Program-made: the position numbers and the translations under genes | In this document: positions 30,665-46,956 of the stretch, piece after piece | Layout: each line of letters opens with the position of its first letter | Numbering within the stretch: position 1 is the stretch's first letter | Notes under the pieces: generated by a model | Told to the model about the DNA's origin: nothing | Databases searched by the model: none | What the model saw: only the letters and a program-made list of their open reading frames with translations | Source of the DNA: an uncultured archaeon | GTDB lineage: Archaea > Asgardarchaeota > Lokiarchaeia > Sigyniarchaeales > SOKP01 | DNA: 64,000 nt | NCBI GenBank assembly: GCA_964486045.1 | Contig: CAZALK010000005.1 | Coordinates: forward strand, 160,001 to 224,000 | Reading direction: 5' to 3'

Positions 30665-31060
30665 TTAATCAATAATGGTTATTTTTTCTATGAACATAAG
30701 GGGATATTGCATATCTTCAATCCAATCAATTTTAGCTAGCACTTCCACATCCTCATATTTAATTATTAATTCAGCTCGAATGATATTTCCCGTGATTTCG
30801 TCATAATCGAATGTTGTGGATTTATCTCCTACTATTTTATCTTTATCTAATTTAATTTTAACTGATTTGACAAAAGGCTGGCAACTAATTGCTGCTTCAA
30901 TTCCATTTTCTATAGAACTAATAATTTTTTCGTCTGAACTTATAGGAATTCCACACAAAATATGATAAAGAGTACCTAGTTTAATTCCTGTTTCAAAACA
31001 AGCTCTCTCTCTTAAGTTTAAACTCGATGAGAAATAGATCTTTTCATTTTTTCTTGACAT
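30665..31060 (-). CDS. mptD: Archaeal dihydroneopterin aldolase
   Basis: RERACFETGIKLGTLYH, QPFV, YPLM. Confidence 0.85.
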   Translation of the reverse strand: MSRKNEKIYFSSSLNLRERACFETGIKLGTLYHILCGIPISSDEKIISSIENGIEAAISCQPFVKSVKIKLDKDKIVGDKSTTFDYDEITGNIIRAELIIKYEDVEVLAKIDWIEDMQYPLMFIEKITIID

Positions 31061-31066
31061 AAAATA

Positions 31067-32086
31067 TCAGTCGAAATATTCAATTTTTGCTCCTGTATTA
31101 TTCGGTTTACAGATATAAATATGCCCTCCACCGTTCTTCCGATTTTTTTGCACTTCTTTTAGAATAGCTTCCACTTCTGAATCAGATTCTACAATCCCAA
31201 TAACGCTAGGACCAAATGAAGACATCCCATAAGCTTTTAATCCATATTCATCAAAAAATGTCAAAAGATTCTTAACAATTTCATTCTGAAGGTCAATTTC
31301 GATCTTTTTAAAGCCAATATTTTGAATTCTTTTCAACCCTTCCCCAAAACACTTTAAGTCATTCTTTATAATCCCTGGAATCATTTTCATTATAATTTGA
31401 TGAGAAACCTCATTTACTTCCTTTTGGGGAATTGGCGCGTAATTCTGAAAAACCCTAATTTCTTCATCCCCAAAAGCACCTTTTTTGACATCAGGAATTA
31501 CTAATAAAAATCTCCAATTTTCAGGGATGTTATGCCGAGAAATTGTTAATGCTGGATTCACTGAAGGGGAAGCAGATGAGGGTAAAAAAGTTTCTTTTTC
31601 TTTTCCAAACCCAAAGTCATGTCCACCATCTAATATAAAACCTCCTGTCTCAAAACCACTCCAACCAATCCCAGATGTACCTCCCCTATTTACCATTTGA
31701 GTCATTTGTTTTATAGATAAATGATTAATATTCTTCAATTTGGTTATCGCACTGATGATAGCTAAAGATAGTTGAGTTTTTGACCCTAGTCCTACGTGTG
31801 AGGGAAAGTATCTTTTAAGGTTGAAGTGGAAATTTTTATTACTAATATTAAATGTTTTAAATACTTTTGAAGCAATTTCATTGATTACTTCTATTGACTC
31901 TCTATAATATTTATGAGCTTCAATCTGAAACTCCTCAGCACTATTTGAAGCCTCAAACACGACGTTAGGCTGATCTAACATAAGACCTATACCGCCATCA
32001 ACTCGACCAGTATACCCATTTTCATCTATTAAAGAAAGGTGTATGCGACATGGGGTTGTAATTCTTAAGGATGTCATATTTTTCAA
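31067..32086 (-). CDS. mptG: Beta-ribofuranosylaminobenzene 5'-phosphate (RFAP) synthase, GHMP family
   Basis: TPCRIHLSLID, GRVDGGIG, HVGLGSKTQL, GGFILDGGH, MSSFGP. Confidence 0.9.
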   Translation of the reverse strand: MKNMTSLRITTPCRIHLSLIDENGYTGRVDGGIGLMLDQPNVVFEASNSAEEFQIEAHKYYRESIEVINEIASKVFKTFNISNKNFHFNLKRYFPSHVGLGSKTQLSLAIISAITKLKNINHLSIKQMTQMVNRGGTSGIGWSGFETGGFILDGGHDFGFGKEKETFLPSSASPSVNPALTISRHNIPENWRFLLVIPDVKKGAFGDEEIRVFQNYAPIPQKEVNEVSHQIIMKMIPGIIKNDLKCFGEGLKRIQNIGFKKIEIDLQNEIVKNLLTFFDEYGLKAYGMSSFGPSVIGIVESDSEVEAILKEVQKNRKNGGGHIYICKPNNTGAKIEYFD

Positions 32087-32298
32087 TTTAGAAGAGCAAT
32101 TTCAACTATGATTAAGAGTTTTTATAATAATTTAAATGTTTAATGTCTTCTAAACATAAATTTCTCAATAAATGGGAAATGTGTAGATTATTGACTCAAT
32201 TAAAAGCAAATAATCAGATTATTAATGATCAAAGAATTTTTCTTTTAGATTTTGCTATAAGATTTATTGCTAAAATTCGTAATAATAAGGTTGTTATA

Positions 32299-32811
32299 TT
32301 GAGTGATCTAGAAGGATTGACAAGGAATTTATTGAGTAAAGGATATACGGACCAACAAATTATTCAAAGATTGGTTCAGGAATATCATGACTTTAAAGAA
32401 ATTGAAGATGCTTCAGCAGTTAAGCTTGCGGAAGCTATCTTAGATGAGTGCAGAAAAAGTGATAAAAATCTAATAACTGACTCCGTTATCAAAGATATAT
32501 TAGATATAAATAAATCTGAAGTTACAGTAGGTAAGCAAGGTGTGGGATGTAGAGGTGCAGGAGATTTTTTTGTTCATAAATTAATCGCTGAATTGTCAGA
32601 AACAGGATCAAAAGCTTATTTAACTCCAGTTTCCTTAGATGATGCAGGAGCAGTCAATTTACTAGACATTAATGATAATATAAATTTATCAGGCTTAAAA
32701 GAAAATTTATTTATTGTCTCAAAAATGGAAGGAATTCATTCTCGATTAAGCGATTTTCCATTTATCTGTGGTTTTCATGTTACTCGAGCGTGTTTAAGGG
32801 ATTTACCTTAA
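32299..32811 (+). pseudogene. N-terminal fragment (170 aa) of PurM-like/AIR-synthase-related gene, intron-less paralog of 34799-36205
   Basis: TTG start SDLEGL aligns with 34799; GVGCRG.GDFFVH, EGIHSRLSDFPF.CGFHVTRA; stops after LRDLP. Confidence 0.8.
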
Positions 32812-34798: not shown

Positions 34799-36205
34799 TT
34801 GAGTGATTTAGAAGGATTGACTAGAAAGTTAATGGAAAAAGGTTTTAAAAAGGAAGAAATCATTGTAAGGCTTGTTAATGAATATATGGATTTTAAAGAC
34901 ATTGACCAAGAGTCCGCAACTCTTCTTGCTGCAGCAATTTATGAAGAATGTAAAAAGAGCGATATAATAACTGTTTCAGATCCCTTTATAAGAAATTTGT
35001 TAGATATTAATATGGCAAATGTAACTATTGGAAAACAAGGAGTGGGTTGTAGAGGATCAGGCGACTTTTTTGTTCATAAACTCGTTGCAGAGTTATCTGA
35101 AACAGAAATAAGGGCATATTTATCACCTAACTCCTTAGATGATGCTGGAGCTGTGAAGATTAGTGATATTGACGGATTTAAAACAGAAGATGATCTAATC
35201 ATTGTATCTAAAATGGAAGGAATTCATAGCCGCTTAAGTGACTTTCCATTCTTGTGTGGTTTTCACGTAAATTCATGTAATGCGTTTGTGTGAAGCGTAT
35301 CGAGAGCTGCACTACGAGATCTCTATGTTAAAGGCGCTAAGCCTATTTCAATAATGGTTGATGTACATCTAGGAGATGATGCAGACGTAGGTAAACTTTT
35401 TGATTTTATGGCAGGTATATCTTCTGTTTCAGAATTAGCAAATGTTCCAATAACAGCAGGTTCAACTTTGAGAATAGGTGGTGATATGGTTATAGGTAAT
35501 CGATTGGTAGGGGGTGTAAGTGCTGTAGGTATCTGTACCAACTTATTGGCTAGGAGAAATATTAAAATTGGTGATAAGATACTAATGACTGAGGGAGCTG
35601 GTGGAGGTACAATAACTACAACAGCGATCTATTCTGGGAATCACAATGTTGTCAAAGAAACAATGAATGTTAAGTTTCTTGAAGCTTGTGAAGTGTTATT
35701 AAATTCGGATTACCTAAAAGACATTAGTGCTATGTGTGATGTTACAAATGGAGGACTTCGAGGAGATCTCTATGAAATTAACTATGAAGCTAACTGTGGT
35801 ATGACAATATATGAAAATGAGGTAAAAAAACTTGTAAATCTAAACGTTTTAAATCTTTTAGAGAAAGTGCAAGTTGATTATTTAGGTGTTTCTCTTGATG
35901 CTCTCCTAATTTATTGTTCTGAATCTGCTTCAAAAAAAATTATTTCAGATTTAAAAAGAATAAGTATAAGATGTGCCGAGATTGGTTTCGTGAATGACTC
36001 AAAGGAAATATCCATGATATATTCCGATAAATCGAAAGAAAAAGTCCTTCCACGATTTCGAGAATCGGCATATACAAAAGTTAAACAAGTAATTGGTGAA
36101 GAAACTCCAGAATTGATTAAAGTAATGGAAAAGAAAATTGAAGTCGCAGCCAACGCTGCTTTAGAAAAGCGTAACAATATTATAAGAATTATCAAAAATC
36201 TTTGA
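34799..36205 (+). CDS. PurM-like/AIR-synthase-related protein, join(34799..35270,35301..36205), 458 aa after splicing
   Basis: Two track ORFs are in the same frame, separated only by a TGA inside a 30-nt insert; spliced product reads GFHVTRAALRDLYVKGAKP; GSTLRIGGDMV and DVTNGG motifs. Confidence 0.88.
35271..35300 (+). other. 30-nt bulge-helix-bulge (BHB) intron in mRNA
   Basis: Exon stem 35254-35264/35302-35312, central helix ACGU/GCGU, bulges AAA (35269-71) and AUC (35299-301), intron stem 35272-80/35286-94; contains in-frame UGA. Confidence 0.85.
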
Positions 36206-36207
36206 TC

Positions 36208-37077
36208 TTAAGTGAGTGTGAGAACTTCATTCATTGAGCCAGAACGAAATCCTTCTAAATCAATGGTTATATAGTTAAAACCAATTTCCTTGAATTTCTT
36301 TTTAATTAAGTTTAAATTCTCAGATTTAAATATATTTGGTAAATCAACCTGTAAAAGTTCAATACGAGCTAGACCATTCTCATGATGTCTTACTCTTAAT
36401 TGTGTTAGGTTAAAAGTTTTTTTCAAAAATCTCTCTCCTTCTCTTATGCGATATAATTTTTCTTCATTTATCTCTTGACCATATGGAACTCTTGAGGAAA
36501 AACATGCCATTGAAGGTTTTGAGTGAACAGATAAGTCAAAATATTTACAAATTTCCCGAATTTCTTGTTTGTTCATATTATATTCAACATATGGCGTGAA
36601 TATATCTAAATCTTTCAATGCTTGCATTCCAGGGCGGTAATCTAAGAGATCATCTGCATTTGATCCGTCTAAAATGGTTTCAAAGTTTCTTTCTTTCTTC
36701 ACTTTTATGATATCCTGATAAAGACCAGTTTTACATAAGTAACATCTATTTTCAGGATTACATTGAAATTCTTTGTCGTTTAAAGGATGACGCTCAATAA
36801 TCTCATGTGGGATATTGTGGGAGCTAGCAAATTTACTAGCTTCTTCAATTTCTTCATCAGGATAAAGGATAGATTTTTCGGTTAAAAGTAGAGTTTCTTT
36901 AGCATACCGGCTTGACAGATAAGCTAAAAGTGAACTATCAACTCCTCCAGAAAAAGCCACTAATACTTTTTTTCCACTTAAAAATGAAGTAATATCATTT
37001 AACTTCTTTTTTACAATGTTCGATAATTCCATAATATTTACGAATGCCTTAGATAAACTATGTAGATTATTTAACAA
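36208..37077 (-). CDS. larE: LarE-like ATP-dependent sulfur transferase (PP-loop); start probably ATG at 37032
   Basis: AFSGGVDS, RCYLCK, DYRPG, PSMACFSSR, RVRHH, GFRSGSMN. Confidence 0.85.
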   Translation of the reverse strand: MLNNLHSLSKAFVNIMELSNIVKKKLNDITSFLSGKKVLVAFSGGVDSSLLAYLSSRYAKETLLLTEKSILYPDEEIEEASKFASSHNIPHEIIERHPLNDKEFQCNPENRCYLCKTGLYQDIIKVKKERNFETILDGSNADDLLDYRPGMQALKDLDIFTPYVEYNMNKQEIREICKYFDLSVHSKPSMACFSSRVPYGQEINEEKLYRIREGERFLKKTFNLTQLRVRHHENGLARIELLQVDLPNIFKSENLNLIKKKFKEIGFNYITIDLEGFRSGSMNEVLTLT

Positions 37078-46905: not shown

Positions 46906-46956
46906 ATTCCTTTACTTGATTATAACGAATAATATGATCAAGAGTATGAATATTCA

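Follow-up and report, generated by a model that had tools for sequence, protein, structure and literature searches.

A probable bulge-helix-bulge intron in the coding sequence of a PurM-like enzyme gene from a Lokiarchaeia archaeon

A 64,000-nucleotide stretch of DNA from an uncultured Lokiarchaeia archaeon (assembly GCA_964486045.1, contig CAZALK010000005.1, positions 160,001 to 224,000, here called the window) carries a gene for an enzyme related to AIR synthase, of the PurM superfamily, whose coding sequence is interrupted once by a stop codon. The original prediction, made from the letters of the window, held that the two open reading frames (ORFs) at 34799-35293 and 35354-36205 form a single frame, and this is indeed the case: the TGA at 35291-35293 is the sole stop between them. 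It had also guessed at an Asgard archaeon of Lokiarchaeia type, which fits the names attached to close homologues. The TGA falls within a 30-nucleotide insert, and we set out here why this insert is probably an archaeal bulge-helix-bulge (BHB) intron.

Together with the flanking exon sequences the insert can be folded into an outer helix (h), a central helix of 4 base pairs (bp), two bulges of 3 nucleotides on opposite strands and an inner helix (h'), so that the predicted structure is the strict canonical hBHBh' motif. The positions first proposed for the exon stem, central helix, bulges, intron stem and loop were reproduced base for base (Table 1). In the cbf5 pre-mRNA each bulge is cleaved between its second and third residues (PMC2738675), the same rule on which the original prediction relied; applied here, it removes 35271-35300 as foreseen and leaves CAC GTA ACG AGA GCT, that is, HVTRA. 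So defined, the intron would begin with nucleotide 3 of the 5' bulge, continue through the hairpin (9 bp, loop of 5 nucleotides) and the GCGU strand of the central helix, and end with nucleotides 1 and 2 of the 3' bulge.

Table 1. Coordinates in the window of the PurM-like gene, its putative intron and the related truncated copy.
Feature	Position	Strand	Remarks
AIR-synthase-related (PurM-like) gene	34799-36205	+	Single 468-codon frame; sole interruption is TGA 35291-35293
Exon 1 (putative)	34799-35270	+	TTG start; 3' end CAC GTA A encodes His-Val and base 1 of Thr
Outer (exon) helix h, 5' strand	35254-35264	+	Pairs with 35302-35312, 11 bp, several G-U
Central helix H, 5' strand ACGU	35265-35268	+	Pairs with GCGU 35295-35298, 4 bp
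5' bulge AAA	35269-35271	+	Predicted cut 35270/35271
BHB intron (putative), 30 nucleotides	35271-35300	+	Without counterpart in about 90% of homologues; excision restores HVTRA
Intron hairpin h'	35272-35294	+	9-bp stem 35272-35280/35286-35294, 5-nucleotide loop 35281-35285
In-frame TGA	35291-35293	+	In 3' arm of intron hairpin; unspliced translation would end after 164 amino acids
Central helix H, 3' strand GCGU	35295-35298	+	Pairs with ACGU 35265-35268
3' bulge AUC	35299-35301	+	Predicted cut 35300/35301
Exon 2 (putative)	35301-36205	+	Begins with CG of the Thr codon; stop TGA 36203-36205
Outer (exon) helix h, 3' strand	35302-35312	+	Pairs with 35254-35264
Truncated intron-less copy, N-terminal part of same family	32143-32811	+	64% identity to residues 1-159 of the full gene

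The absence of the insert from the paralogue at 32299 had served as the initial point of comparison. The insert is indeed lacking there, but this paralogue is a truncated fragment that stops 6 codons past the intron site (it reads FHVTRACLRDLP and then stops) and is a poor comparator; full-length orthologues serve instead. We aligned 24 of the 120 closest database proteins (70-79% identity, 458-474 amino acids) with the read-through product of the window gene. The motif GFH-VTRA runs uninterrupted in 22 of the 24, and the window product has 10 extra codons in place of the Thr. The remaining two, both metagenomic proteins (L004, gene 319-1743; L005, gene 127-1503), have a 10-residue insert at the same place, and their DNA contains a 30-nucleotide insert with TGA at the same position as in the window. 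These entries exist in the database solely because a gene caller translated TGA as Trp, and as a result the public sequences would contain 10 spurious, intron-derived residues. When 400 genomes of the phylum were searched in six frames, the gene turned up in 156; internal-stop or split copies were limited to one family (f1), in which they occur in six genera, and no insert was found in the other families searched. The insert-bearing species number 10 in genus g1 (including the window genome), 8 in g12, 4 in g11, 3 in g6, 2 in g2 and 1 in g7. For all further comparisons we set the 30 insert-bearing sequences (28 species genomes and the 2 metagenome contigs) against 15 intronless orthologues, which were the 15 best-scoring copies. 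An alignment of orthologues had been named from the start as a check on the prediction, and it places an insert with covarying BHB pairs at the same site in all 30 sequences.

This distribution also disposes of the trivial explanation that assembly or sequencing created the insert, or that it marks particular strains and most cells lack it. Such a doubt is fair for an assembly of 45 contigs that is presumably metagenome-derived, 99% complete and carries an estimated contamination of 7.8%. Logan contigs of two runs nevertheless contain the insert with 0 differences, two other studies contain variant copies, and 28 independently assembled species genomes have it as well; no DNA joint skipping it occurs in the assembled DNA contigs of four runs. 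The artefact explanation is already refuted by these independent contigs and genomes, and we give it practically no credence.

The case for a structured RNA comes from comparison. Folded alone, the window sequence has a minimum free energy (MFE) of -20.5 kcal/mol (z = -1.9 versus shuffles); on one sequence the BHB motif is not significant, and its significance arises across the 30 orthologous copies. RNAalifold, run unguided on the 30-site alignment, stacks an 11-bp exon helix directly upon a helix of 4 bp. On either strand this shorter helix is followed 3' by three unpaired nucleotides, and the insert itself folds into a hairpin of 9 bp with a 5-nucleotide loop. When the pairs of the hBHBh' structure are counted through the alignment, 96.1% of 713 cells are paired, and 8 of the 24 pairs show changes on both sides (26 cells). 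None of 500 column shuffles did as well, a statistic that overstates independence because the 30 sequences are related; in register-shift controls, in which the 3' partners were slid by 1-3 columns, pairing was 30-53% with 2-5 both-sided pairs. The three helices behave differently. The intron hairpin is the most variable, with 6 of its 9 pairs changed on both sides and 94% of cells paired; the central helix (98% paired) shows one compensatory swap, C-G to U-A, in L004; and the exon helix is paired in 97% of cells, its terminal pair having changed from G-C to A-U in 6 sequences at the protein cost of an Ala to Thr replacement. Both bulges measure 3 nucleotides in every copy, the 5' bulge reading AAN in 29 and UAA in 1, the 3' bulge AUC in 27, AAC in 2 and AGC in 1.

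The length of the insert provides an independent view. It measures 30 nucleotides in 22 of the 30 copies and 29 in the other 8, of which seven belong to a clade of g6 and g11 (the clade also holds two intronless g11 copies) and one arose independently in g1. In these the hairpin has lost either a loop base or a base of its 3' arm, which leaves one base bulged out, and the BHB core is intact. Since a 29-nucleotide insert shifts the frame, the protein search had split those genes into two matches. When cuts are placed between the second and third nucleotides of each bulge in all 30 sequences, excision yields an open frame of 458-468 amino acids with GFHVTRA across the junction in 28 of 28 complete copies; the two copies at contig ends give open frames of 397 and 374 amino acids, with the motif visible in one. 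GFHVTRA is near-invariant in intronless homologues. That one cut rule mends both the in-frame and the frame-shifting copies is the strongest single argument that the RNA would be cut exactly there.

The same copies bear on the proposal that the insert is simply translated, TGA encoding selenocysteine (or Trp) and the 10 added residues making up a surface loop. Lokiarchaeia are known to use selenocysteine, TGA stands at the same position in 21 copies, and the two metagenomic copies mentioned above were translated by gene callers only with TGA as Trp. Yet the first in-frame stop is TAA in 8 copies (TGA in 21, absent in 1), and the 8 inserts of 29 nucleotides would shift the frame, so that no readthrough could rescue those eight genes. 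It is base pairing that is conserved in the insert, not amino-acid sequence; homologues have neither a Cys nor any other residue there, the whole insert being absent; and the gene's own terminator is TGA. The 29-nucleotide and TAA copies effectively refute readthrough by selenocysteine or Trp, and we regard it as exceedingly improbable. Translation of an unspliced mRNA would instead meet an in-frame stop within or just past the insert in 29 of the 30 copies. This stop may be selected, or may be a mere consequence of the UUC/GAA base of the hairpin.

A second set of constraints is found in the exons. The 11 + 11 nucleotides of the exon helix pair at 10.7 of 11 positions in intron-bearing genes and at 4.5 of 11 in the 15 intronless orthologues, the latter being the chance level for this base composition. 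Codon choice differs in parallel: the Thr codon is ACG in 30 of 30 intron-bearing genes and in 0 of 15 intronless ones, the following Arg is AGA or AGG in 30 of 30 as against CGN in 14 of 15, and the residue preceding the Cys is mostly Leu (TTG or TTA) in the former but Ile in 14 of 15 of the latter. Because exon pairing and codon choice both differ from those of the intronless orthologues, the RNA structure is under selection only where the intron is present. The motif dictates codon and even amino-acid choice in the flanking exons.

Might the gene nonetheless be broken, either as a pseudogene or as a source of two polypeptides (164 amino acids, and 283 amino acids from the ATG at 35354), with the hairpin serving some other role? 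A standard gene caller sees two ORFs, and some 2 kb upstream, at 32143-32811, there is a truncated copy of the N-terminal part with a similar length. Both halves, however, are open and conserved (73-81% identity) in 30 lineages of six genera, and the interruption comes midway through the Pfam AIRS N domain. Over the 21 codons past the junction, variable sites number 9, 2 and 20 at codon positions 1, 2 and 3; these codons are therefore translated in this frame. The stretch from the intron stop to those codons offers no start codon. Purifying selection in frame is nonetheless clear over the 17 codons that separate the intron from the first ATG, where translation could not start, and the Met encoded by that ATG (35354 in the window) is replaced by Leu in two copies. 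Nor does the genome hold a second full-length copy, the other matches being the truncated fragment and a distant, weakly matching relative of 24% identity. We judge a broken gene very unlikely.

In view of the geometry, the covariation, the restoration of all 28 complete frames, the constraint on exon codons and the presence of two EndA genes and RtcB in the genome, the original interpretation as an mRNA BHB intron is supported, and positions 35271-35300 are very probably an archaeal hBHBh' intron within the coding sequence of the PurM-like gene. In the pre-mRNA, 11 exon nucleotides on each side would pair, the 4-bp helix with its two 3-nucleotide bulges on opposite strands would adjoin them, and the 9-bp intron hairpin would close the structure. 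A heteromeric splicing endonuclease built from the two EndA paralogues would cut between nucleotides 2 and 3 of each bulge. RtcB would ligate the exons, giving the Thr codon A/CG (the slash marking the splice junction) and an open frame of 458 codons that reads ...TTTCACGTAA/CGAGAGCT... across the junction, and the 30-nucleotide intron would probably be freed as a circle. An mRNA left unspliced would be translated up to the intron TGA, giving a fragment that ends inside the PurM N domain. The further suggestion that splicing controls expression of the enzyme stands in one respect only: the full-length protein would require splicing, but nothing indicates that splicing is regulated.

The machinery required for these steps is encoded in the genome. 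Two genes have an EndA domain (PF01974; C7:36595 and C10:137165; 102 and 67 bits) in open frames of about 200 codons, as expected if they encode a heteromeric (alpha-beta)2 enzyme, and a single RtcB gene is present (PF01139; C1:512216; 557 bits). Asgard archaea have been assigned an (alpha-beta)2 EndA with an L1 loop (PMC5829648), and a link between mRNA introns and heteromeric EndA has been established for cbf5 (PMC2738675). ARAGORN detects only 31 tRNA genes and places introns in 20 of them. Many of its anticodon calls are implausible (Pyl, Stop), and this suggests that the tRNA genes of this archaeon are heavily and non-canonically interrupted, as described for other Asgard archaea.

Besides the relatedness of the 30 sequences, several points weigh against an intron. 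The fold of the single window sequence is only weakly better than those of shuffles, and its MFE structure pairs the central part in a way unlike the BHB. Variation in the exon helix is mostly one-sided (G-U wobble) and falls at synonymous sites; five exon pairs are invariant, and the pairing signal is partly confounded with coding conservation. In two copies one terminal pair of the central helix is an A-G mismatch. No RNA run was listed for this gene, which is evidence neither for nor against splicing; that the RNA is cleaved, ligated and circularised in the cell is our inference.

Finally, GTA is repeated at both boundaries of the insert in 26 of the 30 copies. This too counts against the intron, as it is what programmed translational bypassing, the ribosome hopping of phage T4 gene 60, would use: on an mRNA that stays unspliced, ribosomes would take off at GUA 35266-35268, skip 30 or 29 nucleotides, and land at GUA 35296-35298 to produce ...HVSRA.... 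A stop codon and a hairpin lie within the gap, and such a hop would also mend the 29-nucleotide frames, which makes bypassing the only rival that repairs those copies as well. In 4 of the 30 copies, however, the triplets do not match (GTA/ATA, GTT/GTA and, twice, GTA/GGA), and their frames are intact. The GTA repeat is, moreover, a by-product of a pseudo-symmetric BHB, in which both strands read NNGU and then A. Bypassing predicts Ser where homologues have a near-invariant Thr, and leaves unexplained both the covarying 11-bp exon-exon helix limited to intron-bearing genes and the exact geometry of 4 bp and 3 nucleotides. To our knowledge no bypassing has been described in archaea, and we consider it highly improbable here.

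If the insert is an intron, its history can be read from its distribution. In a maximum-likelihood tree of 45 proteins (unrooted), sequences group mostly by genus, with intron-bearing and intronless genes interspersed. At least 5 changes between presence and absence are forced by well-supported branches of this tree, and 7 are most parsimonious. The inserts are homologous in sequence as well as in position in the 30-site alignment, and for this reason the simplest reading would be one old gain of the intron followed by repeated precise losses, as proposed for cbf5. The direction of change thus rests on homology of the intron sequences and not on the tree.

Two genes elsewhere in the genome that are expected to be essential contain comparable inserts. 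The gene for RNA polymerase A' has a 30-nucleotide insert with an in-frame TAA at C13:44101-44130, which forms a GGAC/GUCU central helix with 3-nucleotide bulges and a 9-bp hairpin, with almost no outer helix; the same cut rule restores CMGHFGH/IELARP. A match with a stop-bearing addition of 30 nucleotides occurs at this gene in 9 species of the family. In about 9 further species, left out of this count, the RNA polymerase A' matches begin only near profile position 73. The gene for EF-2 has a 30-nucleotide insert with three TAA codons at C13:92018-92047, in the codons of the P-loop, with a GCGC/GCGU central helix and 3-nucleotide bulges and without an outer helix; the cut rule restores ITAH/IDHGKTT. 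The hairpins of the two inserts measure 8-9 bp, and neither insert has a good outer helix. RNA polymerase A' and EF-2 were each detected in a single copy; if these copies are expressed, cells of this lineage must be able to excise such inserts from their mRNAs.

We also scanned the genome for BHB motifs whose excision restores an ORF. Under strict settings (outer helix of at least 6 bp, at least 70 codons per side) the window intron, with 11 outer and 9 inner bp, came far ahead of all matches. A looser scan returned 223 matches against a random expectation of 201, with no peak at 30 nucleotides. Introns with weak outer helices are missed by such scans, so the mRNA introns of the genome cannot be counted from them: the RNA polymerase A' intron surfaced only after the outer-helix requirement was dropped, and the EF-2 insert came from a domain search and from no scan. 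We lean slightly towards the view that EndA-type introns of about 30 nucleotides are scattered through protein-coding genes of this Lokiarchaeia family, including genes of expected essential function such as those for RNA polymerase A' and EF-2, and that the window intron is one visible member of this population.

Three further loci hold candidate inserts of this kind. At C7:54803 (+), excision of a 27-nucleotide stop-bearing insert with a 4-bp helix and 3-nucleotide bulge restores ...NDKCAAGTGRFLE..., a putative motif that looks like the ATPase of BcrAD/BadFG-type activators. At C1:759265 (+) there is a 30-nucleotide stop-bearing insert with a CCUU/GGGG helix and a 9-bp hairpin, flanked by open frames of 123 and 201 codons, and its junction would read ...GGHTIYSEWPL/IGGEASGF.... 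The window itself has a candidate of 31 nucleotides at 46910-46950 (+), whose central helix, hairpin and outer helix measure 4, 8 and 4 bp; its excision would link short open frames of 43 and 31 codons.

The closest precedent is the intron in the cbf5 pre-mRNA of Crenarchaeota (Watanabe 2002; Yoshinari 2006; Yokobori 2009, PMC2738675). Both are short EndA-type introns within a coding sequence, with predicted cuts between bulge nucleotides 2 and 3, a host with heteromeric EndA, and a patchy distribution that implies gain and repeated precise loss. They differ in host gene and phylum, the present host being a PurM-like enzyme gene in Asgard Lokiarchaeia, and in structure: the window intron has the canonical hBHBh' form with an 11-bp exon helix, whereas most cbf5 introns are unconventional BHBs (PMC2738675). 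Splicing of cbf5 has support from cDNA and in vitro work, whereas splicing of the Lokiarchaeial gene is predicted from sequence comparison. Membership in the cbf5 intron family, which occupies the site of the catalytic Asp codon, is excluded by the PurM-like host gene; in the cbf5 of the present genome the TruB_N region has no interruption or internal stop.

The recognition motif is identical to that of archaeal tRNA introns (hBHBh', Marck and Grosjean 2003) and presumably served by the same enzymes, the substrate here being an mRNA. As with tRNA introns, the ligated exons would keep a stem and a 7-nucleotide loop that resemble an anticodon arm. Introns are very abundant in Asgard tRNA genes, the only genes that the two papers on Asgard introns cited here treat (PMC11291895; bioRxiv 10.64898/2026.10.13.758758). 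A further mRNA substrate of EndA is the BHB intron in the 5' untranslated region (UTR) of Haloferax volcanii HVO_1309, shown by circRNA-seq and in vitro cleavage; it is 46 nucleotides long and lies in an untranslated leader, so that, unlike the intron of the PurM-like gene, it interrupts no reading frame (PMC7714728). The 2009 study called mRNA cases other than cbf5 merely predicted (PMC2738675), and the 2020 Haloferax paper named the cbf5 intron as the sole reported mRNA example before its own 5' UTR intron (PMC7714728). Within the literature we searched, BHB introns in coding sequences are reported only for cbf5 of Crenarchaeota. A looser parallel is the unconventional splicing of eukaryotic mRNAs in the cytoplasm. 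The HAC1 and XBP1 mRNAs are cleaved by Ire1 and joined by tRNA ligase or RtcB, and the 26-nucleotide XBP1 intron is set by RNA stem-loops and its removal changes the frame of the product. This is an analogy and not membership, as Ire1 acts there instead of EndA, on another motif, and splicing is stress-regulated.

Several features set the present case apart. The BHB is textbook-perfect and has been conserved for so long that covariation can be seen; it lies in a gene for a metabolic enzyme of Asgard archaea; and it has frame-shifting variants of 29 nucleotides that would make splicing obligatory. If the population of introns is real, mRNAs for protein enzymes would be spliced routinely in close archaeal relatives of eukaryotes, which would need to keep ribosomes off unspliced transcripts. 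With the inserts of RNA polymerase A' and EF-2, the locus offers a testable entry to the question of whether mRNA splicing, and some separation of transcription from translation, predates eukaryotes.

The product of exon 1 has an N-terminal 157 amino acids alignable with homologues of 460 amino acids, and exon 2 supplies the remainder of the AIRS N domain and the AIRS_C domain. The protein scores 29.1 bits with Pfam AIRS (PF00586, cut-off 24) and 48.2 bits with AIRS_C (PF02769, cut-off 23.1); for none of the NCBIfam equivalog models ThiL, SelD, HypE and PurL does it reach the cut-off. Its closest solved structures are those of HypE and PurL (E ~1e-6). As it has the AIRS and AIRS_C domains and reaches no equivalog cut-off, we assign it by sequence as an uncharacterised member of the PurM superfamily with an additional N-terminal region. 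Among the neighbours are a gene for beta-RFAP synthase (MptG; 30665-32086, -; 343 bits) and, convergent with the PurM-like gene, one for a LarE-type PP-loop sulfur transferase (36208-37077, -; 268 bits), which hints at a role for the enzyme in the methanopterin pathway or that of another cofactor. Gene callers split or mistranslate the gene, and annotation as two ORFs is presumably the fate of most other copies that bear the intron. As the gene adjoins mptG, it may wrongly be scored as absent when the metabolism of Lokiarchaeia, possibly including the methanopterin pathway, is reconstructed.

The truncated copy between mptG and the PurM-like gene covers the N-terminal 170 residues and has an N-terminal extension of 50 residues; the next 2 kb or so are AT-rich and contain no long ORFs. 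On visual inspection the copy is nearer to intronless orthologues of other species than to its intron-bearing neighbour, and it could be the remnant of an allele replacement.

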